A DNA stretch of 23,867 nt from Protoeuglena noctilucae (taxonomy: Eukaryota), in contig OY253686.1 of NCBI GenBank assembly GCA_958009085.1, positions 868,001 through 891,867 on the forward strand. Direction: 5' to 3'. How positions within the stretch are numbered: the first letter of the stretch is position 1; every line of letters begins with the position of its first letter. Positions 1 through 23,867 of this stretch are shown one piece after another. Under the pieces are notes generated by a model, which worked only from the letters and a program-made list of their open reading frames with translations, was not told the origin of the DNA and did not search any database. A program made the position numbers and the translations under genes.

Positions 1-20
1 ATCGGGCATCCCGGCGGGCC

Positions 21-2395
21 ATGGGTCGCCGCGATTGGCTGCGGCTTGCAGCGTGGGCGCAGTGGGCGTTTCCGTGGCGCCGCGTCCCGGCCCCGCTGCG
101 GTCGCCGTGCGTCCATCTCCCACTGGATGCATCGCTCGGCGCGTCCCGGACTCGCGAGCTCGCCTCCAGAGCTTGGCGCGCGGCCCCATCGCCCTGCCTA
201 CGCACTCCAGCCGTGCCGGGCCCCCGCGTCGGGCCCCGCCGCCACGCCGGGCAGGAAGCGACGGACGCCGGCGACCTCGAGGATGAGCGCATCGAGATCA
301 CGGAGTCTCTCCTGTCCGCTCTCCGCGAGCGCCACGCGCGCCACGCTGCGCTGCAGCGGCGTCTCTCCGGGGAAGGCGTCGCGGAGATGGACCCAGCGGA
401 GGTGGCGAGGCTGAACAAGGCAAGGGATACTTTGCGTGATGTATGGGCATGCGCTCAAGGGCACCGGCAACGACCTCACCCGTTTTTGCATGACCGTGTC
501 TGTCGCTGCCCCCTTGGCTGCAGGAGCTGGGGTCCCTGGCGGGGGTGGCGGCGCAGTGGGAGGAGCGCGAGAGGCTCCTGGAGGAGATACGGTGAGCGGG
601 AGGGGCAGGTGGGCCCGCAGGACCCACCATGTGACACGGCAGCCGTGTCGTGCCCCATCGCACGCCTCGCTTCAGATGGCTGTGATAGAGTGAGCTGTTA
701 GGTAGGGAAACCTCCGTTACTTGTTCTTCGCTTCTCAGTGGTCTTCGCGAGGCGGCGGATGACCCCGGGGAGGAGGAGGAGGTGCGTGCCCTGTGCCGCG
801 ATGACCTCAGTCGTGCTGAGGGTGCCCGGGAGGCATTGGAGCAGCGCATGGCGTGGAATATGGTGCCGAGGGACGAGGAAGACGAGGGTGAGTCATGGTT
901 GGTCATGGGTTAGATGTAATCTAGGGACACAATGCGGGTGGGAGAGGTGCGCATGTGAGGGTGCATGTTATGCAGGGGCAGTGCGGGTGGCATGCGCATG
1001 TGAGTAAGGCCGCGTGTCGCACAAAGTGTTGGCACCATGCTAGTGTGAAGGTGCGTGTCCATGCCCCACCCGCAGCCGAGGGCCTGGTGTTGGAGGTGAA
1101 GGGCGCCGTGGGTGGCGAGGAGGCGTGCGTGTTTGCGGGGGAGTTGCTGGCCATGTACCGGTCCTTCTGCCACAGCCGCGGGTGGCGCTTCGACGTGATC
1201 AGCCAGCAGTCCTCCGAGTACGGCCACTGCAAGCACGCCGTGGTGGACGTCACGGGGGCGGGGGCGTACCGGTGAGGCATCACAGCTGCATCACAGTCGT
1301 GTGTCTTGCTATGTAACACTGACTTAGATGGTACTGGATCCACTCCGCTACTAGGGTAAGCACGGCAGCATAGCACGCTCTTGCCTCGGCCGTGCGTGCG
1401 GTGGGGCAAAGGCACCCTCGGGTGCATGGATGCTCACCTGACAGCCCATCACGTCAGATCTGACGCTCAGGGCATTGAAGCACGAAGCGGGCATCCACCG
1501 CGTACAGCGCGTGCCCGACACCATCAAGGCCGACAAGGTGCAGACGAGCGCGGCGGCCGTGCTGGTGCTGCCACGAATGGGGGAGGCGCAGGTGCAGCTG
1601 GACATGAGGGACGTGGCGGTGGAGGTCATGCGGTGAGATCACATGAGCAGCTGGGCATGACAGGTCCTGAGTAGCCAGATTTGGATGGTGATTCGGATGA
1701 CAGGCCACCTGTTGGCAAGTTGGCCAAACATGCGCCATCGCACTGCTACATATTGTTAGTGCTACACACCCTGCCGCCCCTCGTCAATCCACTTTGCTCC
1801 CTCCTCTCCCCCTGTCCCCCCAGTTCCTCTGGCGCTGGCGGCCAGCACGTCAACACCACCGAGTCAGCCGTCCGCGTGACCCACCTGCCCACGGGCGTGT
1901 CGGTGCGGGTGCAGGACGGCCGCAGCCAGCACCAGAACAGGGAGAGGGCGCTGCAGATTCTTAGGGCGAAGCTACTCGACGCGGAGAAGGCCAGGGCAAC
2001 GGTGAGGCACTGTCATGGCACTTTTGTGCATTCTCATACACTCTCATTCGCTGTTGTGCACTCGCATGCACCATGGCACTCGCATGCACTGGCTTGCACT
2101 CGCATGCACCCTAACACCCTTCTCCTTCCCCTCCCCGCAGGAGGCTCGCGGCCAGGAGGCCTCTCAGCAGCTGGGCACGGGCGACCGCTCTGCCAAGATC
2201 CGAACCTATAACTTCAAGGACGGCAGGGTGACGGACCACCGCGTGGGCCTGGTGCTGTACAAGCTGTCCGAGGTGCTGAAAGGGGAGGCCCTGGGGGAGC
2301 TGGTGGATGCGATGGGGCGGGAGGAGCGGAGGAGGAGGGCAGAGGAACTGGTGGGGGCGATGGGGGGGCGCGCGAGGGGGGGGGAGGGGGGATAA
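21..2395 (+). CDS. prfA: Class I peptide chain release factor 1, organellar (probably mitochondrial mtRF1a-type), ~468 aa; exons 21-419, 524-591, 739-887, 1076-1271, 1471-1632, 1824-2001, 2141-2395
   Basis: The spliced product has RF1 motifs: [36 protein letters not shown] (PxT), [25 protein letters not shown] (GGQ), [28 protein letters not shown] and RVTDHR. All intron phases match. Intron 1 has a GC donor (AAG|GCAAGG at 420). The Arg-rich N-terminal extension resembles a targeting peptide. The start ATG is tentative because it lies at the window edge. Confidence 0.93.
2058..2109 (+). repeat. Three imperfect tandem copies of GCACTCGCATGCAC in RF1 intron 6
   Basis: The 14-mer is seen at 2058-2071, 2076-2089 and 2096-2109. 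Confidence 0.85.
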
Positions 2396-2649
2396 GTGGT
2401 GACGGGAGGACTAGGGAGTGTTTTTGTGAAGCATCGTTGGTTCAATGATGGCACGCGAAACATGTATCGAGAAAGCACGAAGCACTGTTTGCACCCCAGC
2501 TCTCCATACCAGAGCCTCTCCCCACACCCACCACGGCTCTCTCCACCACCCACCCGTTCCCCCTATCCCTTCCCACCTAGTCCACCTCTCCACCCGGTCC
2601 TTCCATCCCCCCATCCCAATATTCACCTCTCCCCCTCTATCGCCGCATC

Positions 2650-4173
2650 TCACGCCCTAGGCACGGCTGCCCGGAAGGACGCCACCATGGCCCTGAGCCT
2701 CTTCTCGTTCCTGGCCCACTGCTTGTCGTGAGCCGTGACCTTGAGCATCAGCGCCAGCTCGCCGTTCGTGGTGATCTGAGGGGGGAGAATGGGACACGAG
2801 AGATGGGCGGATAGTAAGGCGGGCCTGGAGTGGCACCAGCGATGGGGTGGACAGGGTCAGGTGGCAGCGGAGCGACGCAAGGGCTGAGCGATCGCGACCA
2901 TAGTCGCTGCCATCCCCACCTGCGCCAGGATGTGGGGCCCCGTGAGCGCGTCGGGTGCGTTGAGCTCGTAGGTGTAGTACGTGGACGCGTCGTCGTCATA
3001 CTGCGAGTAAAGAGAGACAGTCAGTAAGTGACTCACGCAAGGCTCACGTGGACACATGGTCACATAACAGAGGCAGACAGCTGTACCATTGATGGGTAAT
3101 GACCCATCACCCATCTTACCTTGACGGACTCCTTTCCCACCACGTCCCCCGGCTCCAGGTAGTTCCCCGTCAGGAACTGCCCAATGGACTCGAGCACCCC
3201 CTGGGGCGTCCCCACCTCCTCGATGGTGGCGCGTGCCTTGGGGGTGAGGCGCTCCAGGGGGGAGACGATCACCTCGGCGCGGCCCTCACGAGCATTGCTG
3301 AAGATCACCTGGGGAGACGGGAGAGATGGGAGATCGGTGGAGTGTGTGTGGAGGTGTGGGCATGGTGGTGGGTGCAGCGAGCGTGGCAGGCTGGGTTGTC
3401 AGCAAGTGTGGTGGGTGCGGCATCAAGGCGTGTGAGTGGCGTACAAGGCAGAGCAAGAACAGAGCCCTTCCAGCATATGCCACTGCCCCATCCATTCCAG
3501 CACATCCCCCATCTAGCCCACCCTTGCCTCAGTCCATGGCTCCGCGCACCGTGGCTGGCAGTAGTTCCCCGACTGGATGTTGGCCACACGGTCCTGCGTT
3601 TCATAAACCAACATATATGTTGCATCTCGACTGCCTCGTGCTTGGTGCAAGCATCTGAAATCAAGTGGGTATTTTAGAGCCGGCTTGCCTCAGACCAGGA
3701 GGCGGGAAGGATGAAGGTGTAGGGGCGGTCGGGCTTGACGGTGCCGGCGCGGATGGCGGGGGTGGCGCGGGGGCCGGGGACGTAGCGCACGAAGTCGTCG
3801 ACGCCGGCGGGGGGCAGGTAGTTGCCCACCTCCTTCCCCGCAGCTGCGGACGCCGCGCCTGCCCCTGGCGACCCGGCAACGACGGCCGCCAGGGCCAGGA
3901 GGGCGCGGCGGGAGACGTCGACGGGGGCGGCATCAGCAGACGGGCGGACGCTGCGGGGGGCGAGGTGGGCAAGTGCAATGAACTTGAATTCAAGAAGACG
4001 GCATGCAGCCAATGGGGAAGGGACAGAATAGATGCCATGCCACAAGGCGCGACGCCAAGGACGCGCCTGGCCCTGCAGGCGACGCCTGGTGTCGAAGAGG
4101 AGACGGATGCAGCCACGCCTTGGGCCGGGCGCGTTGCCCGGGGCGCGACGGGGATGCGGCACGACGTCGCCAT
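2650..4173 (-). CDS. PPD6: PsbP domain-containing protein 6 (thylakoid lumen), ~276 aa; exons 4173-4067, 3950-3689, 3593-3528, 3308-3120, 3000-2920, 2775-2650
   Basis: The spliced product reads EVGNYLP...TPAIRAG...PYTFILPASWSE|DRVANIQSGNYCQPRCAEPWTE|VIF...SPLERLT...ATIEEVGTP...FLTGN...YYTYEL...ALTGPHILA...KQW, matching plant PPD6 as I recall it. It has a transit peptide plus a Tat signal (SRRALLALAA...AxA). Three of five introns need GC donors (4066, 3688, 3527). Confidence 0.9.
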
Positions 4174-4940
4174 CTGCACGGGGAGCGCAGGGGGCCGTCG
4201 CTGCGCACTGCCACAAACCGCGATGCGATACTGCATCTGTGGCGCGGAGCGAGAGATGGGGGCGACTAAGCGGGGCGCGCGGCGCGGGCGATGGGACTGC
4301 TCTTGTGTGGCAGGTGCGCAGGGGCCCTCAGCAACGCCAGCTGGCCAGCCAAGCAAGTTTTGCCAGCGCGGCGAATCGAGTTTGGAGACGAGATATCTGC
4401 ACGCGCTGCATCGGTGCGCCCGAGGAGGCATCGCGGGCGATCCGGACGCAGCCCTTCGCGCGCTCTCGCCCACACTTTGAGCACGCTACGCAGGCGCGGG
4501 ACACGCGTTAAGGGCGCAGATAGACAGTGGCAACTTCAGTTTCCCTAAATCCACGGCCTGAACGTCGGCAACGCATCCATCGCGCCCTGTGCTCGCCTGG
4601 TTCTACGTGTGACGTCTCCCGAGCTCGATTCGTTCCCAACACGCGAGCCTTTGGTATCTCGTGCTTGTTTGATGTACCGCCGTTGATATCCAGCGGGTAC
4701 AGCAGGTTGCGAGCGAGCCAATTTATGGAGTCAGGGTAAGACTGATATCACATGTGTCATGAACCATTCAAGCCGCACCATGCTTTGCAACATCAGCCTG
4801 TTCGTCACCTGTCGTCCCCTCTGTGCTCCGATCTGCTTCCCGCGGGGTGTGATTCCGTCCTGGATCGTGCGCCCTGTGTATCTGCACTGGGCGCGCTTTT
4901 GCAACCTCCACAGGCTTGCGATCTTTCGGTTTTCCACGCC
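4174..4940. promoter_or_regulatory. Divergent (head-to-head) intergenic region between PPD6 and the P450 gene
   Basis: Inferred from the opposite orientation of the flanking start codons. The region is CpG-rich. No specific element was identified. Confidence 0.45.
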
Positions 4941-7900
4941 ATGCTGTCGCTTCAATCTCTTCAAGCCGCGGACGCTCCCGGCGGTGCCCGCGGAGCGCGT
5001 CACGGCACCGGGCGCGCCCGCCTGGTCGTGCCGGGGAAAGGGGGCCCGTCGCGCTTCGCTGGGCGTCCCGTGTCCCTCCTGACCCGCCGAAGCGGAAGCT
5101 CTGGATCGGTCGCTACCACCTTGACGGGCGACAGCCCAGGCGCGTGTCCCCGCTCCGCGCGCGTCCTCAACTACCCAGCTACCCCAAGGCCACCCCTGCC
5201 ACGCATGCCCGCTCTCTCCCGCCGCCCCAGGCAGCGAGGCTCCCCTCCCCGGCAGCCGTCCCGGCCAGCGCTGGGACGGCCAGTGGCGCCCCCCCGTGGT
5301 GGAGCCCCGCGGGTGGTGGGCAAATGTCCCCCTGCTGCGCCGCTGGGTGGGCGTGCTTCCCCAGCTGTCCATCGACCGGATGAACACCGTGGCTGGCCCC
5401 GCGTGGCTGGAGGCGCTGCGATCCGACGCCGTGTGGTACTGGATCTTCAACCGCGACATCTACCACCTGCGTGACCCAGACGACATGGCTGAGGTGGCGA
5501 GGAGGGTGGAGGACTTCGCGCCCCCGGGGGCGAATAACAAAACGCTCAAGATATTCCTTGGGGACTCCCTCGTGATTGCATTTGGGGTGTGGGAAAGTGA
5601 CAGTCTCAGCGTCATTTCTACCCATGTGCCGCTTGCAACAGCCACGCACCCCTCACCCTCACTCTCACTGTCACTCCCATCCCTCACCCCCACTCCCACC
5701 TCCTCCCCCGCTGCTCGCAGATTTCCCTGGATGGCCCCCGCCACAAGGCCGAGCGCGAGGCCCTCAGCCCCCCCTTCCAGGGGTCATACGTGCAGAGGAT
5801 GGTCCCCACCGTGGCCGCTTGCGCCGAGGACCTGGCACGCGTGCTGGCCATCAAGCAGGGGCAGCCGCAGGAAGTGACCGAGACGCTGCGGTGAGTGAGT
5901 GGAAGGAGCAGGGGCAGTGGAGCAGGGAGCGACCGAGACGCTGCGGTGAGACGAGCAGGGGCAGCATGCTGACGGTGGCATGCTGCTCACCCCACTCCTG
6001 CCCTGCACCCCACCCCACCCCAAGCACTCCCCTCCCCATTTCCTTAATCCGCGCACGCCTCACCCTCACCCTACCCCCACTCCCCATCTCTCTTCATTCC
6101 CCCCAGGCGTGCTGCCCTGGATGTGATCGGCCGCGTCGGATTCGGCACCGACTTCCGCGCCCTGTGGTCCCAGCTGGGGGGTAGCGAGGAGGTTGTCAGT
6201 GCGGGGCAGTCGGATGACGTGGGTGACTTGATGGAGCACTGGCAGGACTTTGCCGACTCCGCGGAGAAGATCATGTTCATGCCGCCGGTGAGTTGCTGAT
6301 TACTACTGGCTACTACTTAGACTACAGCACTACGTGAGGGCCATGGTCATGGTCGTGTTCGCCTTCCACCACTCACATCTCTCACTCACCCCCACTCTCT
6401 CACATCTCACTCCCCACTCCCTCTCAGTCCCTCGCGTGGTTCTCCCCCTCCTTCTACCGCTACCGCCGCGGGGTGGACCGCATCACGCGTGCGGCCAGGG
6501 GCATGATGGAGAGGAGGAGGCGGGCAATGGAGACGGGCAGCAATGCGCAGGGTGAGGAAGAAGGGGAGTGGAATGCATGATGGGCAGGCATGGGAGCGCA
6601 GTGCGGCACTCACTACTCACCCTCACTCTCACCCTCACCCTTGCTGCCACCCTCACCCTCACCTCCACCCCCACTCTCACTCACTACCACCCCCACCCTC
6701 ACCTTCACCCTCACCCTCACTGCCACCCCCCACCTCCCCCCCAGGCGCCACCCGCGACGTCCTCTCCCACCTCCTCGCCAACCAGTCCCGCTACGGCATG
6801 TCGGAGCAGCAGATCTTGGATGAGATGAAGCTGCTGCTGTTTGCGGGGGTCGACACCACCGCGGCCACCGTCAGCGCCGCCATCCACGGAATGGCGGGGG
6901 TGAGTAAGGGGGGTGGCATGGCTTGACAGGGAGTGTGCAGATGATGTGAGTGTGTTATCCGCCCATCTCACCAACCAGTCCTATCACTTCCACGCCACTT
7001 CTCCCGCACACACACAGCGCCCCGACTGGCAGCGTGCGTGCAAGGAGGAGATCGACGCTGTGATGGGTGACAGGCCACTGTCGGAGATGACGTATGAAGA
7101 CCTGCAGGTGAGGGAGATGATCGTGTGGCGATGCATGGGGAGATAGATGCAGTGGAGATGGCCATGCTAGAGAGTGCGGCAGGCAGAGACCCATCAACGC
7201 GCATGACGCACCACAGCCTGTCACCATTACTACTACCACTCACCACCACCACCACCACCACCACCACCACCACCATCACCCACCTCCTCCCCCCCCCCCC
7301 CAGTCCCTGCGCCGCGTGCAGTGCGTGTGGAGGGAGTCCCTGCGCATGTGGCCCGCCAGCCTCGGCACGGCACGCACAGCCAGGCACGACACGCAGCTGA
7401 GGGGATACGACGTGCAGCAGGTGAGGGTTGAGGTGGATGGCAGATGAGGGTGGGTGGCAAGACCATGGTTCCTCCCTCCCTCACTCACATTCACTCACTC
7501 ACTCCCTCACCCCTCTCCCACCCCCACCCCTACCCATAGGGCACCACCATGGTCCTCAACTTCTGGGCCTTGCACCGCCACCCCTCGCTGTGGCCCCGTG
7601 CGGACGAATTCCTCCCCGAGCGGTGGCTCCCTGAGTATGCACCCACGCTGGGCCCCTCACGTTCTGACGCCCTCATGCCATTCAACGTGGGGCCGCACGC
7701 ATGCATCGGGGCCACCCTCGCCAACGCGGAGGTGAGAGGGAGAGAGAGGTGGGGGGAGATGGCTCAGGTGCTGTTGCTGACACCCAGCTAGTAGACTATG
7801 CACGGATGGAGAGGCGGCTCAGGTGCTGTCACATTCCATATGAATCATTGAATGCTGTCACAATGAGATAAACTTCCTTCTGCCAACACACCACCATGAG

Positions 7901-8124
7901 ACTCATTGACTTAGTGTAGCTAACACTGCTAACACATCACACACACACACCCACACCCAACCCATCCCCAGGGCCCCCTGCTTCTCGCGTCTGTGCTGCG
8001 TTCCTTCTCCATCCGCGGCGTGCCTGGGTGGGAGCCCGACTGGGTGCAGCGCATGACCCTGTCCAGCACGTGCGGGGTGCACGCGGTGCTCAGGCCGTGG
8101 GGAGACGAGAAGGGGAGGGAGTGA
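4941..8124 (+). CDS. Cytochrome P450, family unassigned, possibly plastid-targeted, ~573 aa; exons 4941-5139, 5231-5571, 5721-5890, 6107-6287, 6428-6551, 6745-6899, 7018-7107, 7304-7420, 7540-7731, 7972-8124
   Basis: Motifs present: LDVIGRVGFG, I-helix LLFAGVDTT, K-helix ESLR (ExxR), FLPERW and heme loop PFNVGPHACIG. The exon phases join into one frame. The N-terminus is rich in Ser/Arg/Ala/Gly with no hydrophobic ER anchor. The first intron uses CAG|GCGCGT. Confidence 0.93.
6608..6720 (+). repeat. Degenerate (CACCCT/CACTCT)n microsatellite in a P450 intron
   Basis: Repeated ctcacc/ctcact hexamers are visible in the 3' half of intron 6552-6744. Confidence 0.75.
7241..7273 (+). repeat. (CAC)11 microsatellite in a P450 intron
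   Basis: A perfect CAC triplet run, with a poly-C tract just before the 7301-7303 CAG acceptor. Confidence 0.9.
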
Positions 8125-8390
8125 GATGTGGAGGGATGGGGATGAGGGGTGGGGATGAGGGTGGCATGGGGGTGCACGCGGTGCTCAGGCCGTGGGGGGG
8201 GGGGGAAGAGAAGGGGGAGGCGTGAGGGTGTAGATGGCATGGGGTGGGTCACGATGGATGGATGGACTGTGTTCAAGGCTCCAACTGTCGCCCTTTGAGT
8301 GTATAGCAAACGAGGCGTTCCATGACGTTCCCTTAGATCCATAGTGTGGGTTGAATTCGAGAAACAAAGTCATCGCCTATCCATCGCCGC

Positions 8391-10938
8391 TCAGTCCATC
8401 TCTGCCTCCCCCATGCTCTGCCACTCCCAGTCGGGGAGGTGGAGGTCCACGGTGCCCCTGGGGAGAGGAAGAGGGGGGTGAGGGCAAGTGTGGTGACACT
8501 GACATTGGGTGCAAGAAGCAGTGGGGGTGCAGGGCAGTGGGGGTATGACATGCGCACAGGCGCATCCAGAGCGCAGTGCGTGACACACAGCTACCACTCC
8601 AATCCATCATTCCCCTTCCATGATCACCGGTACACGTAGGTGGCCATGACCCCCATGGACTGCCTCATGCCTCTTTCACTCCCGTCTGCCATCCAGTGCA
8701 CGTGGTGAGACAGGGCGCCGTTCTTGAGGTGGAAGGAGGCCACGGGGTCACGCAGTGAAGAGAGACTGCAGAGATGGGGGGTTACGGCAGCAGTGATGGG
8801 GTGCATGGCAGGCAGCTGTCCTTGTTGGAGAGTCGCAACCATGCATCGCTGACCACTCACACCCAGTCACTGCCATGCTCACCCGACCCCTCCCCTCAGT
8901 GCCTGTCCCCCGCTCTCCGCGATGTGCCAGTGCGCCATCCGCAGCAGCGCCACCACCGCCCACCGAGGCACACGAACATGAGACGTGGGGACACTGCTTT
9001 GATCTGCCAGGGATGCCACGTGTCTCTGCAGCTGCGCCCAGAACCGCGCCTGGTCCTCGGATGTGAGACGCGACTGCTGCCACAGGTGACTGCAAGGGTT
9101 GTTAGACGATGGGGCGATGGTGACACTGGTAGAGGATGGTAATAGATGATAACATAGGCAGCGATGTGATGTCAACTGCACTCTCATGCAACACCACATC
9201 ACATTACCCTGCTCTCACCTGTGCAGTCCCTCCCATGCAGCCCCCGATGCATCTCCCTCGCTCCCCGCTCCTCCCACATGCGCATCCACCACCTCTTTCA
9301 CCCATGCATGGAATCGTGGCATGGGTGACAGGGTGGCGATGGTGGAGGCGCGGGGACCCTCGGCATCACCCACCACCCGCAGTGCCGACTGCAGGGGGGG
9401 GGAGGTGGAGATGCAAGCGATGCGAATGGGGAGCAGTTACATACTACTAGTATGGACGGGTCGCGTGACATACAATGCAAACAAGGGCATGCGTTCGCTT
9501 GCACACCTGCGCATCAAGTCAGCCGTCGCACTGCGCCACACCGCCCATGCAAGGCACCTTGATGATGTGCTGCCCCAGCCCCATGCCCCCCAGCGACGGC
9601 CGGCGGTTGCTGACGCTGTACAGGGTGAGGGTGTCTGCTTGTGAATTGGCATGTGCCTTGCTGGGTGACGCCGCCTCTACCACCGCTGCCAGGGAGCGTG
9701 GGACACCGCGAGTGAGGGCGCCCCACAGCTGGGCCAGGGGGGTGCGGGGGAGCAGGGGGTGAACCAACACCTGCGGGACAGATAAGGTGGGGATGACGAG
9801 AGGGGAAGTGGAAATGCGAGAGCAGCAGTGGCTCCCTGGCAGGCATTGTCAGCGATGGCTAGCTCTTACTAGCGCTGCTAGCAGGCAACATGGTCTGTCA
9901 CCATCAGTCTGCCGTCCGGCCCCATGCGGTTGAGAAGGTCCCCGGGTCGCGCCACGGCATGCACCCTCTCGGTGCGCCACAACGCATCCAGCATCTGAGA
10001 CAAAAGGCAGAGGCGTTGCATGAGAACAAAACATCACCGTGACAACACCTCCATTAAGTCAGTCGCATGTCGCATGTCGGATCGTCAGCAATGCACTGAC
10101 CTCGTCGTCCACGTCGCCAGCACTCACGACGCAGAAGCGCAGGCGGTCGGCATGGCACGCCCGGGTCACGGCCTCACGCACCACGCCACGCCCAGACGCC
10201 TCCCCTGTTGACCGTGGTTCTCCTCTTGACCCCGCATCTGCCTCTGCCGCGTCTGCCAGGTCCAGGAGCAGCCGCAGCCCCGGCCCCGTGCGACCCAGGC
10301 ACTCGGCCACACAGCGCCATCCACGCCCACCGCTCCCGGACCTGCACGCAACATCCATCGCCGCGAGCAGCCGGCCGTGGAAGGGACCCGCACTGCGTCC
10401 CTCTCGCGCCTCCTCTGCCGCTGCTGTCAGTGCCGCCGCTGCCACATGAAATGGGTCATTGTCTGCCGGTGCATCGGGTGCATTGGCATCGGCAGCAGCT
10501 GCGGTGGTGGCCACCCGGTCGCAGGCGTCGATCAAAGCCTGGGAGGGCGAGAAGCGAGAGATGGCGTGAGCGATACGAGGAGTTGCTGCTAGGAGGAGGC
10601 ATGGGGCGCACCCTTGCCTGGACGTCTGCCCCGCTCCCCGCTGAAAGGGAAGGGCTTGCAGCCTCCGCTCCCTCCCCTCCGCTGTCACTCTTCGCAGCTT
10701 CCGATTTCACTGCAGAGGGCCCCTGCCACGCGCGGAGGAGGGCGAGCGACTCCGCGAGAGCGGTGCGGGGCTGGGCCGCTGGCTCCGAGCCCCGCTGCAA
10801 TGAATGGGGGGGTAATTCGAATATCCAGCGAGGGACGAACACAAGGGGCGCGTGAACAAAGTGCGGGGACGATGCGACACTAGATGGCGCGCATAACTGC
10901 GCAACAGTGACGCCAACTCGATGAATAGAGCGCAGCAT
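8391..10938 (-). CDS. MLYCD: Malonyl-CoA decarboxylase-like protein (divergent), ~548 aa; exons 10938-10618, 10538-10101, 9994-9902, 9770-9558, 9388-9219, 9089-8883, 8765-8628, 8457-8391
   Basis: The spliced product aligns by eye with MCD blocks: TERVHAV...DLLNRMGP (EAVH...DLKRRVGP), HPLLPRTPL, LYSVSNRRPSLGGMGLGQHIIK (FYSIS...GLQGVELG.FLIK), ATLSPMPRFHAW (SLSPIPGF..W) and DPVASFHLKNGA...WMADGSERG...SMGVMATYVY (NPVANFHLQNGA...WMAD.S.RG...S.GLMANYRY). The start and the last exon are tentative; an in-frame TGA at 8626-8624 is the alternative end. Confidence 0.85.
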
Positions 10939-11181
10939 GCCGAGGGGTTTGATGTGACAGGAGCAGCGGAGTGACTGATACGTGTCAAAGTTGAGGCATA
11001 GCATAAGTGCATCGGGAATCATGCGTCCAATCGGCGCCATCAGAACGCGCGTGCCAGTGAATGCGCATGAACACCATTATGAGGCTTCGGAGCGATGGGG
11101 CGACCTGCCACATCGCCTCTCTCGAAGAAGATGTAGGTGTCCTGATCGCCTTGAGTCCCTAGACACAGCTGACCGGAGGCG
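10939..11181. promoter_or_regulatory. Short (~240 bp) divergent intergenic region, candidate bidirectional promoter
   Basis: It lies between the tentative MCD ATG (- strand, 10938) and the ATG at 11182 (+). Inferred from orientation only. Confidence 0.4.
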
Positions 11182-14077
11182 ATGGGGAGCTCGAGTGCGG
11201 GCGACCCTGTCCCCGACCTCGCTAGCCGAGCGGAGGCCCTGCTATGTGCCCACGTGGATGCCGGGGCCAATGCGCTGATCGAGGCCATTCGGGAGATGGC
11301 GGACCGGTGCGCTTCCGAGGCGCGCGGGCCACGCAACAACATGAACCTTCAAGCACGAAATGCGCGAGCCTCTGCCGACGTGCAGGGCCCAGCGGACCGT
11401 GAGGGATCAGTTACGGGAGTTCGCGAACATCTCGCGGCGCGATTCCTCCGCCGGTGCTCCCCCGGAACCGACTGGCCCCGCTGCCTCCCGCGCCCTTCCC
11501 CCGGCCCCGCTCAGCGATCGCAGCGGCGCCGATTCGGCCGACGAGTCCCATAGCACCGCTGACGCGTCCTCAACCGCCCGCGATCCCATGGGAACCCAGG
11601 ATCCCTCGCATCCCGCGGCAGTGGCGTCGCTGCTGCGTGTTTTGGGTCCCGATGTCGAGTGGGGCGCACTGCCCGCCGCGCTGGCCTGGGACCCCAATGC
11701 ATGGGCACCCCGACTGGTCCAGCAGTCCGAGTACTCCCGGCTGAGGCGAGCTAGTGGTGCCGACGGCCGACCTTCCCCTCATCGCCAGCACCACTCCCGC
11801 ACCTTCTCACCCCGCCCCTCTCCCCCTCCCCCCAGCACCCGCGCCCGCCTCTGTGACCGCCTGGAGCGTCGCGTCGCAACCTTAGAAACCCACCTCGCCA
11901 GGGCCAAGGCGAACCTCAAGAGGAGCAACGCCCTCGCGCCCACCGACCTGCCGCCCCACATCGCAGCCGCGCTCGCCCCAACCGACCCGGCCACGCCACC
12001 GCACTCCACCGCGCACCCCAGCCCCACCCCTTCCGCCGCCCCCCGCCCCGACCCCCACCACGAGGCGTGCGGTGTGCGGCTGTGGGTGTCGGCGCCTGCT
12101 GGGCGCGGGTGGGTGGAGCAGCGCAGCCCCGCCTGCGCCGCCGCGGCTGTGGCTGGGGCGTGGAATGCCGTCCGCCCGCCTTCGTCGCCCCTCTTTCCGG
12201 GGGGGCTGCCCCGCATACAGGTGAGATGGTGTCCATCATGGCTGTCACAGTCACACGTGCTATCAAAAGATCAGCAAGCAGACAACACAACTGCTCCCCG
12301 TTCCCCCCCATTTGCAGCAAGACGACGTTCTCGATCTGTACCGCGAATACTGGGCGGACGAAGTCAGGGCGGCAGCCAGGGGCATCCTGTCGATACTGCA
12401 GGTGTGAGGACACGCAACACGCACATGCCCATGGCTACCATCCCATGCTTACTCCACTCCACTGCAGCAACCCACACCCCTTCCCTCTGTCCCCGCAGCC
12501 CTTCTCCCCCGCGCCCGACAGCCCCTCTCCCTCGCAGCCCCCCAGCTCCTCGCACCCCGCCACCACCACCACCCCGCCCCTGCCGCCCCCCTCGGTGCTT
12601 GCCGGCCTGGAGTCTGCGCTGCGTGAAAGAGGCGTCATTCGCGCGGGGCACAAGCCGGGGAAACGGGAGGTGGCGGCAGCACTGGCGGTGTATGCAGAAG
12701 TGCCCGAGGCAGAGTGGGGCGTGGAGGATGATCAGAGGGCAGCAACAGGGGACGCAGATGGGGAAGGGGAGCAGGCGTCGCAAAGGGGAGGGCGGGGGAG
12801 GAGGGGTCGGGGAAGGGGGCGGGGAGGGGTGCGGAGGCGGGTGAAGGGGGGGACGTTTGACGTGCCAGTCGCCATCTTTGAGGGGCCGGGAAGAGCAGGG
12901 GATGGGGCAGGTGATGCAGAGGGAGTTGCGGACGGGGATGGGGGGACAGCAGAGGCTTCGGCATGCGGGAGTGAGAGGGGTGGCGAGAGTGACGCCTCTG
13001 CCGCTCCCCGCCGTGACCCGTCAGACTATGGGGCATCACCCAGGCCCCGCGCGAGGCGGTCCGCCAGCACGGGTCTCCTGGGCACCCACGCGGGTGCAGT
13101 CACGGGATTGTCGCTGCCGGCCATCCGTGGGGCGCGCAGGCCCCCTCTGCCGGCCGTGGTGGGCATAGGCTTGGCACCGCCTCGGCCCCCATGCGACCCC
13201 CCGGACACCGACGCTGCCCTCTCCCCACCCCACGTGCTATCCACCGCGACAGCTGTGGAGCTGGACGCCCCTCCACCCGACAGCCCCCCGCATCCCCGCG
13301 ATGCATTGGGGGAGGAGCGCGTGCGTGCCGCCATGCGCGCCCTGCTGCGGGGCGGGGGTGCGCATCGTGGCGAGGCGGTGGCGCGGGTGCGGGCGTGGGC
13401 GTCGCGGCAGGGCGCCCTGGGCAAGCTCAGCGGCCCTCGCCCCAGCACGGCCCCCGTGGGCACGGACCGCGTGATGTGGGCGCTGCAACGTCTGGCGTCC
13501 CGCCACCAGGTGCAGCTGTCCGTGTGGCGGCTGATGGGTGCGGGGCGTGGGAGGTACGAGGTGCCACTGGCGGCGGAGGATGGGGAAGACATGGTGGCGG
13601 AGCAGTGGGGCAAGGTGAGGGGGAGAGAGTGGGGGGGGTACCAGGGGAGGGATAGTGGGGCAGAGTGAGGGTAAGAATGAGGGCAGCAACGGGGGGCAGA
13701 ATGCGGGGGTGTTACGACAAATGGAAGGCCGTGGGAAGGGCAGTTGGCATGAGCTGCGAGCGTCGCCCAGCCACCCTCCCTCCTTCGCCCCTCGCCCGCA
13801 GCTGCTTTCGTGGCTGTCTGCCCCTCGCGCGGCGCTCATCTACCACTTAGAAAACCACTTCTCGCTGATATACGCGGCGAGGGAGTGGCGCAGCGACGCC
13901 GGCTACGGTGGGGCACGCACAGTGCGTCAGGTGCTGGTGGCGCGGCCGGGGCAGCGGCCCTGCTACTGGGTGGACTTCGCCTGGCTCAGGGACACGTGCC
14001 TGGCGTGGAAGGGATACAACGTCGTCGCCGTCGCGTGCCCGGGGCCGGCAGGGGGGCCCCAGGCAGGCACCGGCTGA
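11182..14077 (+). CDS. Uncharacterised protein, ~780 aa, with a split BIVM-like / papain(C39)-like fold; exons 11182-11306, 11386-11745, 11836-12220, 12318-12401, 12499-13614, 13802-14077
   Basis: The exon chain is phase-consistent. Conserved-looking blocks VEQRSPACAAAAVAGAWNA, RPSTAPVGT and LIYHLENHFSLIYAAREW...VLVARPGQRP..WVDF are separated by low-complexity linkers. Intron 11746-11835 (GC donor, 90 nt, in frame) is tentative. Confidence 0.75.
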
Positions 14078-14141
14078 CAACACGCACAGACCAGTCGCAG
14101 ACCAACGTTCAATGCACGCCCCCTGTCTAGTTGTGCAGTGA

Positions 14142-15004
14142 TCATCGCGGCCGCCTCGTTTGCGTGGGTGGCCGGTTCGCCAGCTGCTGCGCCCTTTCCA
14201 GCTGCGGGGTGAAGGGAGGACGTACCGTCATTGCCAGGCATGCACCAAAGCGCGCATCGCTCGCTCGCGCCCCGCCCTCGGCCCCCCACCTGCCCCGCGA
14301 TGACCTCTCTCCGCGCGGCCCACAGCTGCTCCCGCCGCCTCCGCTGCTGCATCAGCGTCCCGTCCTCACGCACCGCCGCCTCCATGGCCGCCCGCGCCTT
14401 GGCCGCCTGGCCCGGCCGGGGAAGCAAATCCACCCCGGGGAGGCCCCGCCCCGCGCCCGCGTCCACGTGGACGGGCGACACGGGCGCAAGGGCGAAGCGC
14501 TCCGGGTGCCGCTCGTCCGGCATCAAGCCCACCCGCCGCAGCAGCTCCCGCACCGTGGGGGTGGGCTCGGCGCCCTGGGCGAGCCAGTACTTGGCCCGCG
14601 TGAAGTTCAAACTCAAGTGCAGATTCCCGTCGTGCCTGCGGGGCGGAGCGGAGCGCGGATGGCCGCGTGAGGCATCGTGGGCGAAGGCACGGCTGCAGCA
14701 GGACGGGGCGAGTTTTCCGCGCATCTCGGCGCCCCACCTGGGCTGCGGCCAGAAGTTCCCGATCATCTCGACATGCTTGCCATCCCGATTGCCCCCCGAC
14801 CGCGCCACGTGGATGCGGAAATACTCGATGTTCTGCGTGCCGCAGACGGCCACCGCTGACGGTGCGGCAGACGCCCGCGCGGCGCTACTAGTTCGCTCGC
14901 AAAGGGCGCTACAAGGTCCCCGAAACACGTCAGGTCCCCGACTCTCTGCAGGCCCTCACCGCTTTCCCGAAGCGAGCCAGGCGGATTTTCAGCGGCCGCT
15001 TCAT
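14142..15004 (-). CDS. RPS16: Nucleus-encoded organellar (probably mitochondrial) ribosomal protein bS16 with a C-terminal extension, ~181 aa; exons 15004-14960, 14832-14738, 14635-14290, 14201-14142
   Basis: The product reads MKRPLKIRLARFGKA|NIEYFRIHVARSGGNRDGKHVEMIGNFWPQP|RHDGNLHLSLNFTRAKYWLAQGAEPTPTVRELL, matching the S16 pattern (KIRLxRxG...RI.V...RDG..IE.lG.y.P...KYWL..GAqPt.TV..LL). All introns are GT-AG. Confidence 0.92.
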
Positions 15005-15588
15005 GGATGCGAGGCCTCCGCGGACCCAGCCGCCTGCAGGTGATGCACTGCAATGGCCTGGCCAGGCTTGATGTACTTGCGAGGATTGCAAAGACCGCAG
15101 GGGTAACTAGTGGTGCCACGCTTCAGCTGAGCGAGGGGATGAATGCGATGGCGGCGGCGAAACACTCTACGGACTCACACAGGTCGATCTTGATGCCGCA
15201 GCTGCCTCAGAATCGCTTATGTTTCTGTGCCCACCCTCCTGACGTTGTGCGACACGTAGGCTCCCGGCGATCAGCGGCTTATGCGCGAGGAAGTGGCGTC
15301 AGAAGAAGCACACGTTTGATCTCGCATGGGCTGGGGCCGAGCGGGAGGTGGCCGCGACTGCTAATTTTTTCCATGCGCTCTGCCGCGGCGTGGGCCCGAC
15401 GCGCTGCGTAGCGTCGGCCCGCCAGTGGGCGGTGTGCATGGCGAGAGGCTGGCTTAGCTCGACAGCAGTCCCGCAGAATTGCCGCGTGCTCTGGGCGGAC
15501 TAATGGGCCCTCGCGCGCGGGCGCTTGCTCCCCTGTGTCGCGTGATGATGGTGCGCCCCTGCCGCGCGAGCAGCGTGACCTTGGCAGC

Positions 15589-16843
15589 ATGCAGCAGCGC
15601 GCAGGATGGCGGGGATCCCCGCCCCTGCTCGCCCCGGCGTTGACAGTTAGGCGGGTCTGTTTGCTCGCGGCATCTGCGGGCCCGCGCGTGCCGAGTACCG
15701 GCTGGATCCATGCCCGCAGTTTGCGTTCCGAGGCAAGGCCTGCGATGCCGCCCCGCCAGCGGGTGCGCTGGCACCGAGGCGGTGGCACAGCGCGGCGCCC
15801 CATTCCACGGATCTCCCGGCGCCCCGTCGCACCCCGGGGCACTGCGATGCTTTCCATTTGTGTTCCAGCAGATACGCGTCTCACCCTGTCGTCCCGGATG
15901 CCGTAGAAGGTGCGGGGCGGGGGCATCCAGGTACCCAGCGCTCCATGCAGCCCGGACAGCCACAGAAGTTACTTGCTCTTCCCCCCACGCAGCTCATGGC
16001 AGTGAAAGAGTCGAGGTTTCTTTCCTTCGACGCAACAGCCCGTCGCCCCCCATCCCCTGGGGAGCGACCGCAGTGGTGCGCGGTGCGTGGCCAGCCGTGG
16101 GCTGCGTGTCCCCTGCCCTCTCTGCCCTGCCGGGGATGGAGGGGCTGCAGAGTCGGCGGCGGGGTGTTTCTGGCGCGCGCTGGCACCCCTGGCCGGCGGG
16201 CACAGTGGGATGTGCGGCCATGGGGGGCGCGGGGTCCCTGTGGGTTGGGCGGGGTGCAGCGGGGGGGCCTAACTCAGAGAATGTAGGTGCGGGCGGTGCA
16301 GGAGCGGGGTCGGGTGGCGGTGGCAGAGAGCACCGCTCCGGTGGACCCGTGCCTCAGGTGACGCCCCATGGCATCACAATGCATGATCCGACTCTGCTCT
16401 CCACCCCACTCCTCACCGTCTCTGTCGTCCCGCAGTGCACCCCGCAGTCTCACTCTCTCACTCTCACTCTGTCTCTCCTCTCCCCCCCCCAGCTGGGCGT
16501 GGTTCACCCCGTGGTCCCCGAGCGCAGTGACCGCGCCCAGTACCACACCGTCATGGTGGCCATCTGGGCCAACGTGGCCATTGCTGCTGCCAAGGCCGTC
16601 GCCTACCTCGCCACGGGGTCGTCTGCCATGCTCGCCGAGTTCATCCACTCCTGCGTGGATGTACTCAACCAGGCAAGGGACACGCAGATTTGTATCACTC
16701 TCCCACTCACTCACTCACTCACTCACTCACTCGTCGCCCCCACTCACTCACTCACTCACTCGTCGCCCCCACTCACTCCCATCCCAGTACCTCCTCCGCC
16801 TGGGCGTCCTGTCACTCTCTTACTTTTACTCCCACTCAATCCA

Positions 16844-16876
<33 letters not shown>

Positions 16877-16882
16877 CACTCC

Positions 16883-16915
<33 letters not shown>

Positions 16916-19111
16916 CCACTCCCACTCTCTCACTCTCACTCACTCCATCTCATTCACTCCCACTCTCAGTACCTCCTCCGCCTGGGCGTCCTGGCCGCCC
17001 GCCGCTCCGCCACCGCCGACCACCCGTACGGCTACTCCAAGGACCTCTTCGTGTGGAGCCTCATCGCGGGGGTGGGGATCTTCTGCTTCGGGGGGGGGGT
17101 ATCTTTGGGTAAGGAATGAGTGACAGTGACAGTGACGTGACTGCCATGACACACACCGCACTTGACTCGACACCCCCGGTGGCTGCCCAGTCGTTCACTG
17201 CCCCGTCGCTCACCCTTCCCCTTCCCTCACCATTCCACCCATTCCCCATCTCCTCCCCAGTCCACGGCATCAACAGCCTCCTCACCCCCGGGCATTTGGA
17301 GAACCTCGGCGCGGGTGTGGCCGTGATGCTCGTGTCACTCGCAGTGGAGGGGTACTCCTTCAAAGTGGCACTCGACACGGTGCGGGCGGACGCCAAGCAG
17401 GCCGGCATGTCGCTGCGTGAGTAAGGGTGGGGGTGGAGGGGGTGGGGGGTGGCAGTGCAGCACAGCTGACCACGTGCACTGCTGGCGTGCCTGGTTGGTA
17501 GTACTACTAACTTGACGTGCGTGTGAGTTGTTCCATAGCATGTAACTGACCCGCACCCTTTTTCTTCTATCACCAGTGGACTACATCCAGCGCGGCCGCG
17601 ACCCCACGACCACAGCAGTGCTGGTGGAGGATGCGGGGTCGGTGATCGGGGTGACGGTGGCCGGCCTGTGCATGTGGCTGACGCACTTCACCCAGGCGGC
17701 CGTCTTCGATGCCGCGGGGTCCATCTTTGTGGGGTGCCTGCTCGCGGGGTCCGCGGCGTTCCTCATCCAGGCGAGAGATGGGCAGTGCCCTGTGTCTGCG
17801 CCACTGTGACTGTATACTACTCCCAGCGCTTATGACCACCCGTCACGCCCACAGCACCAGCATCAGCACCGCGCGTGCCGGGTCAGCCAAAGCACCCCAT
17901 ATGAGTGCTCCACCCATGTCTTGCCCCCTCCAGACCAACCGCAAGCTGCTGATCGGCCGCGCCATGGGGCAGGAGGAGCGCGCGCAGGTGCTGGACCTGC
18001 TTCGGTGCGACCCGGTGGTGGCGGCCGTGTACGACACCAAGAGCGAAGAACTGGGGCCGGGGGTGTACCGATTCAAGGCGGAGATCGAGGTGAGGGATGA
18101 GTGGTGGTGATGCGAGTGATGAAGATGGAGGTGAGTTGGCGATGGGGGTAACACGAGGCATGCTTGCAACCGATGCAGCTCTCATGTCATCACACCTCAT
18201 CTCCCCCTCCCAATCCTCCTTCCACCCCTCTCAGTTCTCTGGTGACCAGATCGTGCGCCGCCACCTCGACCGCACCGGCCGTGCTGCCACCCTCCGCGCC
18301 ATCCGCGACTGCGCCTGCGACGACCGGGCACTGGAGAGGGCGCTGAGGGAGTTCGGGAAAGACGTCATCAGCTCCAGGCGAGGGGCAGGGGGCATGGCAT
18401 GGCATGACATGGCAGGGGTGGAGAGCGATGCTTACTGCCCACCATACAGCCGCGTCACAGACCCACCTCACTCTCTCCACCCCCCCAGTGGCGCTGAGAT
18501 CGACCGCATCGAGCAGGAGATCAAGGCGAGGGGACGAGCTGGCACCTTTCCAGCCGCTGCCCATCTGCCAACAAACACGGATGCTGTCAGCTGGAGATGC
18601 GTGGGTGTGGGTGTTACCACTTGCACTGATCAATGAACATATACACACACATGCCCCTTCTCTCCACCCCCCCAGCGTGCCGTCAAGGGCATCCGCCACG
18701 TGGACATCGAGACGGACCGAGGGCGGTGGTTCCGCGCCCAGGAGCAGTGGCCGTGGGACGAGGAGGCGCCAGGGGATCACAGGCCGGAGTTCGTGAGGCC
18801 CAGCGACGCACCGGACACCTACGAGGCCATCGCGCAGTCCATGTGCAGCATACCCACGGTGGGTGAACAAGGGGGGGCGGGAGTCGGGAGGGTGATGAGG
18901 CACACGGGGGGTTTGGTGCAGTGCATAGCTGTAAGAGAGTGTGGTGAGACGGGTGATGCGTTGCAACACAGCCCCGTCTGCCTCCCCACCGCAGGGCCCT
19001 CATCAGGGGGACGGTGCGGGGGGGGCACGGGACCAGGGGAGCTCTGCCAGCAGTGGGGCGGGGGGGCTGCCCGGGGATGGCATGGGGTCGGCCGGCAGGA
19101 CCAAGGCATAG
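15589..19111 (+). CDS. Cation diffusion facilitator, MTP7/ZnT9 (SLC30A9)-like metal transporter, ~610 aa; exons 15589-15732, 15869-15930, 16039-16357 (these three tentative), 16493-16672, 16970-17108, 17261-17416, 17577-17770, 17934-18089, 18235-18377, 18489-18525, 18676-18858, 18995-19111
   Basis: Motifs present: SSAMLAEFIHSCVDVLNQ (TM2 HxxxD), HPYGYSKDLFVWSLIAGVGIFCFGGG, RGRDPTTTAVLVED, FDAAGSIFVGCLL, NRKLLIGRAM, DTKSEELGPGVYRFKAEIEF and GAEIDRIEQEIK...GIRHVDIE. These match MTP7/ZnT9 as I recall them. There are four clear GC donors (16673, 17771, 18378, 18526) and one tentative (15733). Confidence 0.9.
16695..16969 (+). repeat. (CACT)n and (CTCACT)n microsatellites filling an intron of the CDF gene
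   Basis: cactcactcact runs at ~16704-16780 (including a duplicated tcgtcgcccccactcact unit) and ctcact hexamer runs at ~16845-16960. Confidence 0.85.
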
Positions 19112-19254
19112 GGCAGACCCGCGGCGCATGGCATGTGAAGCAGAGGCACACTGGCGGTCACTTTCTGACACATTGGCTCGAGCGCAAGCTGTCCGCGCCC
19201 CGACCTCGCCTCCCCACGCATTCTCGTGAATCCGCAAGCGCTCCTAGTGCCGCG

Positions 19255-20857
19255 ATGTCCGCGTTGCCGCTGAGCCTCGGCGCAGGCTTGCGCGCCCCTG
19301 CCAAATGCGCTGCCGGAAGGCTCGCCCCGGCGATGCCACGGGCGCAGGCGCAGCGCGCGACGGTGGCGCGGGCAGCCGCTTCCAGGCCTGAACCGGCGTC
19401 GAACGTCCCGCGATTCAACCCCGATACCGACGCCGTGGACGTTCCCGCAACTCCCGCGCCGAGCAAGTTCCGGTCAGAAATGCACGCGCGTGCCTCGCTA
19501 CGCGTCCTAATTGCGTTTTATCGCAGGCCAGAGCAGCTCCGGTGTCGTTTGTGATGCAGGAACATGGTGGCGCTCGTCGCCGGGGCCACGGGGCGCACGG
19601 GAGCTGAGATAGTAAAGCGGTTGGTGAAGGAGGGCGTGCAGGTCAAGGTGAGCTTTGAGCAGGTCGCGGAACGCTTTTTACATACGCGTAGATTGTAGAG
19701 GAGCACCAGCAGTTGGTCGCGGAGGTCCCGCGAGGCGCGCACCGTGCCCCCTGACCTCGTGGCTGCGCACGCACCGTGCCGCACGGCCCCGGCGCGCCGC
19801 GCGGAGCCTCCGTTGCGCCCCTCGCATGCAGGCACTCGTTCGCGATGAAGCAAAGGCGCGAATCATGCTGCCCATGGACAGCGGCTTAATCCAGGTCATC
19901 GTGGTGAGCAAATGCAGGGAGGGGAGCCCTGCGGTTGCGTCAAAGTGAATGTGGCGTGGCCAGCTGCACCAGCGCCTCGCATGGTGACGTGCACCGCAAT
20001 CAGACCTCTCGCAGGGCGACGTGTACCAATACGAGACGCTGCCCCCGGCCATGGCGGGCGTCAACACGGTGTTCTGCGCCACGGGGGCCAGCACAGTCAG
20101 CGACCCCCTGGGGCCCTACAAGGTCGACTACGAGGGGACTCGGTGAGTGGGGAGGGGCCATGACGCTTTGCCATGATCTGCGGCTGCCCCGCACACTCGT
20201 CACGCACGCCTCCCTCATGCCCCATGGCCCACTGCCCACCCTCCAATCCGTCGCTCACCCCCCAAAGTCGCATGCCCATCCGTGCCCCTCCCCCTCTTTC
20301 AGGAACCTGGTGGCAGCGGCGCGCCAGGCCCAGGTGCGCCGCTTCGTGCTGGTCACCTCCATCGGTGCCGACGAGCTCCTCAACCCCCTCAACCTCTTCT
20401 GGGGCGTGCTGTTCTGGAAGAAGCGGGCGGAGGAGGACCTGCAGAGGTCGGGGCTGGCGTACACGGTCGTGCGGCCGGGGGGGCTCAAGAGCGAGCTGAG
20501 GGAGGGGGAGACGCTGGGGCCGGTGGTCATGGCCAAGGCTGGGACGTACGGACTGGGGCCGGGGGCGAGGAAGCCGGAGGGACCCATCCTGCGCAGCCGG
20601 GTGCGGAGGAGCGGAGCAGGCTGGCCATGCATGTCTGTGTGTACATGCATGAACATGTACACATATATGCATGCGTGTGAATGGAATGGCATGGGCTATG
20701 CAACGCGGCTGTCCCTCTGGGCCCTCAGGTGGCGGACGTGGCGGTGGAGGCGAGCGTGGAGGAGCTGGCTGCCAACACGGTGGTGGAGATCCTCACGGAG
20801 CCCAATGCCCGGGAGATGCCGACGCCGGAGATGTTCCGGTCGCTGACCAGCAAGTGA
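19255..20857 (+). CDS. Plastid-targeted NAD(P)-binding Rossmann-fold protein (atypical SDR, TIC62-like), ~310 aa; exons 19255-19472, 19560-19647, 19832-19903, 20015-20142, 20303-20600, 20729-20857
   Basis: An Ala/Arg-rich transit peptide is followed by LVAGATGRTG, ALVRD, GPYKVDYEGTRNLVAAA, FVLVTSIG, LNLFWGVLFWKKRAEEDLQRSGLAYTVVRPGGL and ILRSRVADVAV...NTVVEI. It lacks the C-terminal FNR-binding repeats of vascular-plant TIC62. Confidence 0.9.
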
Positions 20858-23608: not shown

Positions 23609-23686
23609 TTGGGTTAGGGTAGGGTTAGGGTAGGGTTAGGGTTTAGGGTTAGTTTTATTTTTAGGTTAGGTAGGGTTAGGGTAGGG
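23609..23686 (+). repeat. Proximal telomere-variant repeats (TTGGG, TAGGG, TTTAGGG, TTAGG and a T-rich interruption)
   Basis: Read directly: TTGGG TTAGGG TAGGG TTAGGG TAGGG TTAGGG TTTAGGG TTAG TTTTATTTTTAGG TTAGG TAGGG TTAGGG TAGGG. Confidence 0.9.
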
Positions 23687-23867
23687 TTAGGGTTAGGGTT
23701 AGGGTTAGGGTTAGGGTTAGGGTTAGGGTTAGGGTTAGGGTTAGGGTTAGGGTTAGGGTTAGGGTTAGGGTTAGGGTTAGGGTTAGGGTTAGGGTTAGGG
23801 TTAGGGTTAGGGTTAGGGTTAGGGTTAGGGTTAGGGTTAGGGTTAGGGTTAGGGTTAGGGTTAGGGT
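23687..23867 (+). repeat. Telomere, (TTAGGG)30, right chromosome end
   Basis: Thirty perfect TTAGGG units run to the end of the sequence, with the G-rich strand oriented 5'->3' toward the terminus. Confidence 0.97.

Follow-up and report, generated by a model that had tools for sequence, protein, structure and literature searches.

Does the small, green marine alga Protoeuglena noctilucae splice a large share of its introns at GC rather than GT donors, and if so, what lets it do this? The question arose from a stretch of 23,867 nucleotides (positions 868,001 to 891,867 of contig OY253686.1 in assembly GCA_958009085.1), which we call the window. It forms the telomere-bearing end of contig C19, one of 27 contigs in a genome of 26.33 Mb. 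A preliminary description, made from the sequence alone, modelled 55 introns in the window and gave about 12 of them a GC donor, always as AG|GC (the bar marks the exon-intron boundary). We found that GC-AG splices in the window are real, that about one in six modelled introns across the genome has a GC donor, and that these donors concentrate where the rest of the site matches U1 small nuclear RNA (snRNA) well.

All 12 sites do read AG|GC on the strands given for them, followed by AAG, GAG or GCG. Our RNA evidence came from contigs of three marine RNA runs (X2, X3, and X4, which are three samples from one study), compared with positions 1-20000 of the window; what we say about RNA at single sites concerns 15 of the 52 joints. 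The sites, and the evidence for each, are:

420..523, plus strand: GC-AG intron 1 of the release-factor gene (AAG|GCAAGG); open frame and model call, with indirect support from an X2 contig.
3951..4066, minus strand: GC-AG intron 1 of the PsbP-domain, PPD6-like gene (CAG|GCGCGT); model call, with RNA pieces that stop at the acceptor, 3950.
3594..3688, minus strand: GC-AG intron 2 of the PPD6-like gene (GAG|GCAAGC); RNA pieces stop at 3688, and database protein P0040 is identical over the junction.
3309..3527, minus strand: GC-AG intron 3 of the PPD6-like gene (GAG|GCAAGG); P0040 is identical over the junction.
5140..5230, plus strand: GC-AG intron 1 of the cytochrome P450 gene (CAG|GCGCGT); X4 joint 5134->5226, which only GC..AG fits.
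10539..10617, minus strand: probable GC-AG intron of the malonyl-CoA decarboxylase-like (MCD) gene (CAG|GCAAGG); model only.
11746..11835, plus strand: GC-AG intron of an unnamed gene (GAG|GCGAGC); X2 joint 11743->11834, which only GC..AG fits.
15733..15868, plus strand: possible GC-AG intron (GAG|GCAAGG) within the 5' part of the CDF transcript, from sequence only; the acceptor is 15868 or 15871.
16673..16969, plus strand: GC-AG intron of the cation-efflux (CDF) gene (CAG|GCAAGG); gap-free alignment with homologues P0004, P0005, and P0007.
17771..17933, plus strand: GC-AG intron of the CDF gene (CAG|GCGAGA); joint in X2, X3, and X4, and homology.
18378..18488, plus strand: GC-AG intron of the CDF gene (CAG|GCGAGG); joint in X2, X3, and X4, and homology.
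18526..18675, plus strand: GC-AG intron of the CDF gene (AAG|GCGAGG); joint in X2, X3, and X4, and homology.

Five of these sites (5140, 11746, 17771, 18378, and 18526) have an RNA joint, and for all five, the only placement with GY..AG ends is GC..AG at the predicted coordinates. This rules out splicing at a nearby GT instead. The three CDF joints (17765->17929, 18373->18485, and 18523->18674) were each found in all three RNA runs. Six further RNA joints that we examined resolve to GT..AG. In a DNA-like run, X5, the listed RNA joints are all missing, and its pieces show no letter differences over the 12 sites. Because its pieces agree at all 12, the C at +2 is no assembly slip (X5 may itself be the source of the assembly).

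Two more junctions, 3688 and 3527, are covered by P0040, a database protein from a 943-base contig that matches the spliced PPD6 model and is identical to it over both. This match also excludes an in-frame GT at +6 of donor 3527. The contig of P0040 is the same size as record 5 of X3, so P0040 is probably not independent of the RNA-contig evidence. The site at 16673 is supported by homologues: the CDF model aligns to P0004, P0005, and P0007 without gaps at any of its four GC junctions (16673, 17771, 18378, and 18526). At site 420, the evidence is indirect, as the fit of the X2 contig ends at 417 with 7 letters over, which is where a 419|524 joint would fall if placed as far left as possible. 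The other three donors (4066, 10617, and 15733) are modelled only, and none of them was seen among the 15 of 52 RNA joints listed; at donor 10617, moreover, a GT at -6 or at +6 would also keep the frame. The preliminary description had argued that joining conserved protein motifs requires the GC donors. However, four of these donors (420, 4066, 5140, and 10617) belong to N-terminal regions, where motifs alone do not force the choice.

To see how common GC donors are across the genome, we sampled 20 contigs at 40 kb each (800 kb) and later added a fresh 90 kb, for a total of 890 kb, or 3.4% of the genome. The GC content is 67% for the genome and 64-68% in the sampled blocks. Introns were called with a gene-finding hidden Markov model that was seeded with four window genes and self-trained on GT donors only, so the genome-wide counts are model predictions and concern coding introns. 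When GC, GA, and GG shared a single weight matrix and the same prior, the calls were GC 170/211/224, GA 10/23/37, GG 9/21/39, and GT 1205/1150/1107. After re-estimation, 235 of 1415 introns had GC donors (16.6%, interval 14.7 to 18.7), against 12 GA and 5 GG controls. Every contig in the 20-contig sample had GC calls, from 5/67 at the lowest to 22/86 at the highest. Hold-out halves gave 128/729 and 115/693, and the fresh 90 kb gave 25/167, with 4 GA and 3 GG controls. (A simple pyrimidine-tract test of donor-like words proved too blunt: GC sites were not above controls, and GT sites only slightly so.)

Pooled over 890 kb, the share is 260/1582, or 16.4%, so the high share suggested by the window stands but the genome figure is nearer to one in six than to one in five. 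The same model called 11 GC donors among 52 introns in the window itself (it missed 5140 and added a doubtful one at 1990). This does not differ from 235/1415 (P = 0.35), so the window is no local outlier in a genome with a share near 1%. With GC calls on all 22 sampled contigs, the idea of a lineage-wide tolerance of C at +2 also held up. Our gene model has 225 genes with introns, 5.8 per gene on average, and 122 of these genes contain one or more GC introns. As had been predicted, gene finding that allows only GT fails here: a GT-only model shifted 179 of the 235 GC donors elsewhere and lost the acceptor of the other 56. A GT-only annotation would damage about half of the genes.

What distinguishes the GC donors is their context. 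If the exon ends in AG and the intron has AG at +4 and +5, then 194/455 donors are GC. With the exonic AG alone, the count is 16/384; with +4 and +5 alone, 16/391; and with neither, 9/185. Hence, outside of the AG|G..AG context, GC donors total 41/960. Within this context, the GC share climbs further with A at +3 (23/34) and with T at +6 (53/67): it reaches 50/61 at AG|G.GAGT and is 0/43 at AG|G.GCGG. If we compute the energy of the U1 duplex with +2 set to T, then GC donors make up 131/285 in the strongest bin and 20/618 in the four bins that span -9 to -5 kcal/mol. Correspondingly, GC donors have a higher mean U1 score than GT donors (5.14 versus 4.23) and more often have A at -2 (90 versus 59%), A at +4 (91 versus 63%), and G at +5 (95 versus 85%). 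The rule recurs with a weight matrix that was trained on GT donors alone, and in the hold-out halves.

The preliminary description stated that GC donors always follow exonic AG. This is true of all 12 window sites but of only 210/235 genome-wide; 9 of the 25 exceptions read xG|GCGAGT and are plausible. It also stated that GC donors depend on strong exonic pairing with U1. The dependence on the U1 match is clear, but exonic AG does not suffice, as A at +4 and G at +5 are required too.

In other respects, GC introns resemble GT introns. Their median lengths are 125 and 127, and base make-up, acceptor logos, and branch-like motifs (with an adenine peak near -29) are alike. GC introns do not cluster in genes (chi2 = 238 on 224 degrees of freedom) and GC donors are not linked to first or last introns (19/146, 144/847, 18/146). 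We found no extra G-runs behind GC donors (P = 0.79); when contexts were matched, their number was slightly lower (P = 0.04). GC donors are in excess in phase 0 (146 of 214), but this mostly follows from the AG context (125/277, 21/53, and 28/85 by phase). In coding exons of the 800-kb sample, AGGTGAG occurs 3 times in sense and 20 times in antisense, while AGGCGAG, at 42 versus 46, is not depleted, and unused GC look-alikes are therefore tolerated there.

U12-type donors have an RTATCCTT-type motif. GC donors do not match this pattern, as 209/235 continue with GAG or AAG. We found a single U1 snRNA with a canonical 5' end, on which a covariance model (41/427 candidates scored), a DNA search, and a two-loop pattern agree. 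The ACAGAGA box of U6 and loop 1 of U5 are canonical as well, and the GC-AG introns of the window are probably ordinary U2-type introns. For U11 snRNA, no match was found among the 40/706 candidates scored, in a search whose control gave no signal either; U11 is reported to be absent from Chlorophyta (PMC11347168). Genes for U1-C, SNRNP27K, a METTL16-like protein, and PRP8 with its U6-binding domain are present, and we found one locus for LUC7. The U1-C gene itself has a modelled GC intron. Compared to human U1-C, the modelled zinc finger (L092:1501-1871) has T11S, Y12F, P18L, S19V, and R28L (we take human residue 18 to be proline) and retains L13, T14, H15, R21, K22, and H24. The human Ser19 is given by Kondo 2015 (PMC4383343).

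Are GC donors peculiar to this genome? A metagenome scan yielded 12 loci. Four of them (L101, L103, L104, and L105) hold the P0004 gene, L102 represents a second relative, and the others are distant. The CDF proteins of the two relatives are 77-81% and 67-75% identical to the window's protein, and neither CDF gene has the 7 to 8 introns that interrupt the window's copy (L101:10001-11587 and L102:3906-6800, versus window 16493-19111). Similarly, the PPD6 orthologue in L102 lacks the four introns of the window gene (2650-4173). Its single modelled intron, AAG|GCAAGG at L102:4653-4744, is at a position that is intron-free in the window gene. Excising it gives a gap-free alignment, and the GT alternatives remove at least 4 residues. 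From this one case, GC tolerance is probably common to the group. Three window genes stay together in L102. An Rfam scan of four relative loci gave no matches.

These comparisons point to heavy turnover of intron positions, by large-scale gain here or by loss in both relatives. If L101 is the closer relative, which we judge by identity alone, then gain here would be more parsimonious than two losses. We also noticed exact duplications at splice sites. The sequence at 16785-16811 recurs at 16967-16993, so that the acceptor and exon start are copied inside the GC intron that begins at 16673; 5876-5895 recurs at 5931-5950, with an exon end and donor copied inside a P450 intron; and more short exact duplications span splice sites at 8074/8169 and 20828/20871. 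Tandem duplication at splice sites could be a seed for new introns.

Why are GC donors so common? We think that these are probably ordinary U2-type introns whose +2 position drifts to C at strong U1 sites in a genome with 67% GC. A C at +2 would cost one pair with U1 (C against A7), and this loss would be tolerated if both flanks pair well, that is, with exonic AG plus A at +4 and G at +5, and best with A at +3 or T at +6. The +2 position would then be nearly neutral at strong sites, and a C-ward bias of substitution would fill it to roughly the neutral share of C. This presumably also takes a spliceosome with somewhat laxer demands than those of plants or animals. Several published observations fit: the U1 small nuclear ribonucleoprotein binds +2C better than +2A (Kondo 2015, PMC4383343), neutral fixation of GC in strong contexts was proposed by Churbanov 2008 (PMC2490688), and Iwata and Gotoh 2011 tied the GC-AG share to genomic GC (PMC3033335). 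Also, the 50/61 at AG|G.GAGT (82%) does not differ from the neutral C/(C+T) of intergenic DNA (0.71, P = 0.066) or of fourfold sites (0.74, P = 0.19).

Other results weigh against drift under substitution bias. Compared to the neutral proxy from intron interiors (0.50), 50/61 is too high (P = 5e-7). T at +6 was rarer than neutral at AG|GTGAG in our first sample (11/235), and a four-state drift model with a neutral drain at +2 did not reproduce this deficit in 18 settings (P from 1e-5 to 0.03). In strong contexts, how often GC was used did not clearly depend on the GC content of the intron itself (P = 0.11). GC content alone is insufficient, because Micromonas RCC299 has 64% GC and yet 2.7% GC-AG introns (PMC3033335). 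Finally, the genome-wide counts come from our own gene model, not from RNA, and it may under-call weak GC donors.

The deficit of T at +6 is central to another explanation, in which the best-matching GT donors are slightly harmful, because U1 is released slowly before U6 binds, and C at +2 was selected as a weakening that compensates for this. We consider this unlikely, but it fares best among the alternatives. The neutral expectation for T at +6, from intron and intergenic proxies, is 11 to 17%, and T at +6 is far more common after other G-ending exons (59/280) and at AG|GCGAG (50/170) than at AG|GTGAG. GT donors with 8 Watson-Crick matches are rare (15/1180) and those with 9 are missing. At AG|G.RAGT, GC outnumbers GT by 54 to 11 in the hold-outs and by 10 to 4 in fresh DNA. 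For yeast, hyperstabilised U1 pairing and the bypass of Prp28 are discussed in PMC5779234. However, the deficit was found post hoc, and a prediction fixed beforehand failed: T at +6 was 4/24 in the fresh 90 kb, and 4/37 after adding the window and 8 other loci. Both are like neutral (under the first rate, P = 0.024 and 0.093). The neutral proxy can also be as low as 6.6%, as in antisense coding DNA after GTGAG, and results on hyperstabilisation from humans and fungi conflict (PMC11842720). The pooled count at AG|GTGAG is still low (15/272; P = 0.001 versus 11% and 4e-5 versus 13%), so the idea of a ceiling on U1 pairing is open but weakened. A fuller version, in which C at +2 is a selected brake and a window of U1 pairing strength, set by a U1-C with several of its duplex contacts gone, disfavours the best GT donors, seems a shade more doubtful.

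A change in a spliceosomal protein (U1-C, LUC7, or PRP8) might instead have relaxed the inspection of +2 in this lineage. Four of the nine U1-C residues at or near the duplex or SmD3, as described by Kondo 2015 (PMC4383343), are altered (T11S, Y12F, S19V, and R28L), and the lone LUC7 locus compares with two subfamilies in animals and plants. The GC donor in a relative would fit as well, and Iwata and Gotoh suggested proteins or RNA modifications (PMC3033335). But single alanine changes at those U1-C residues do not affect the growth of yeast, and U1-C makes no base contacts (PMC4383343). SNRNP27K, the METTL16-like gene, and the U6-binding domain of PRP8 are all present. We find a changed protein rather improbable as the explanation; it can act jointly with a tolerated mismatch.

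It is more improbable still that the GC donors are the remains of a decayed burst of introners (transposon-like introns) whose AG|GC ends were brought along or co-opted. This lineage may have gained many introns, as two relatives lack the CDF introns and one lacks those of PPD6, and the introners of Micromonas include some with GC/AG ends (PMC4540971). However, when we compared the 1415 introns of the 800-kb sample with blastn, 2 of the 235 GC introns had a match, and no cluster contained two GC introns; this covers 3% of the genome, and families of great age would escape detection. Position-wise identity at the boundaries is at chance level at both ends. Introns in the sample are rich in G at their 5' ends and in C at their 3' ends, which allows the two ends to pair, but no better than the ends of neighbouring introns: a small excess of own over random pairings (P = 0.002) vanished against chimeras from the same gene (P = 0.83). 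And the steep dependence on +3 to +6 requires selection regardless. Lastly, there is next to no chance that a variant U1 or U6 snRNA pairs with C at +2, as had been suggested for this lineage, given that the lone U1, found three ways, has a canonical 5' end and the U6 box is canonical, although a very divergent second U1 might have escaped these searches.

Turning to the window and its host, Pfam domains agree with the gene labels of the preliminary description (RF1, PPD6, P450, MCD, and CDF): we found PCRF/RF-1, PsbP, P450, MCD, cation efflux, and NAD(P)-binding domains, while a match to ribosomal S16 was below the cut-off. In the P450 gene, the loose end of an X3 contig at 5719 matches 5481-5491. 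This may mean that 5494 can replace 5572 as an in-frame donor (window 5494-5720). TTAGGG telomere repeats occupy 23610-23867 (starting at ~23610), with degenerate units in the first 70 bases.

Mitochondrial and plastid genes are on contigs C26 and C27. In a stretch of 237 codons from cox1 (L099:4779-5490), 16 codons are AGA or AGG, at positions that we take to be alanine or other small residues, and TTA or TTG account for 0/33 leucine codons. A cox1 intron holds a frame that is presumably reverse-transcriptase-like. The mitochondrial tRNA(UCU) carries G3.U70 and A73, which are alanine identity elements (L100:6942-7013). Mitochondria of the Marsupiomonadales read AGA and AGG as alanine, have a tRNA(UCU) with G3.U70 and A73, and use UUA and UUG as stops; AGR as alanine is also found in some Sphaeropleales, so it is not exclusive to them (PMC12574857). 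The AGR codons and the tRNA suggest that the alga belongs to the Marsupiomonadales (Pedinophyceae).

Because other GC-rich algae are already known to have a high share of GC donors, our alga adds an example and not a new splicing system. The preliminary description had used a baseline of about 1% GC-AG, which leaves out the GC-rich algae for which shares of 8 to 60% have been published. In their 2011 survey, Iwata and Gotoh (PMC3033335) gave 22.2% for Micromonas pusilla, 39.6% for Aureococcus anophagefferens, and 7.7% for Chlorella sp., and called the origin of abundant algal GC-AG introns an enigma. Like our alga, Micromonas and Aureococcus have a GC-rich genome and a double-digit share, and the U1 5' end was canonical in the two species checked there. 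Unlike Micromonas, which has introners with GC/AG ends (PMC4540971), this member of the class Pedinophyceae showed no repeated intron families in our sample. Pelagophytes (14 to 17% GC donors; bioRxiv 10.1101/2024.10.30.620910) and Emiliania huxleyi (~60% GC and ~4% GA donors; PMC4028052) have similar or higher shares, which were ascribed to high genomic GC, and there too GT-biased gene prediction errs. These lineages are unrelated to ours. E. huxleyi differs in its GA donors, as our GA calls are at control level, and pelagophytes have fewer than 1 intron per gene, compared to 5.8 per intron-bearing gene here. Mammalian GC-AG introns also match the U1 consensus more tightly, with neutral fixation proposed at strong sites, but they are under 1% of introns, whereas here they are 16% and, at the best sites, the majority (PMC2490688).

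In the literature that we searched, we found no report of abundant GC donors in a pedinophyte; the main text of a preprint on a pedinophyte genome (10.1101/2021.10.04.463119) has no word that starts with "splic", although its supplements or the journal version may give the figure. Nor did we come across a quantified context rule in what we consulted of Iwata and Gotoh 2011 (PMC3033335). New here are the lineage, the seeming lack of introners, and a quantitative rule by which GC is in the majority at the best U1 matches. The rule can be tested against both drift and selection. If C at +2 proves to be a selected brake, then this alga, whose introns turn over heavily in the absence of introners, would offer a clean way to learn why 15 to 60% of donors are GC in some GC-rich algae with an unchanged U1.

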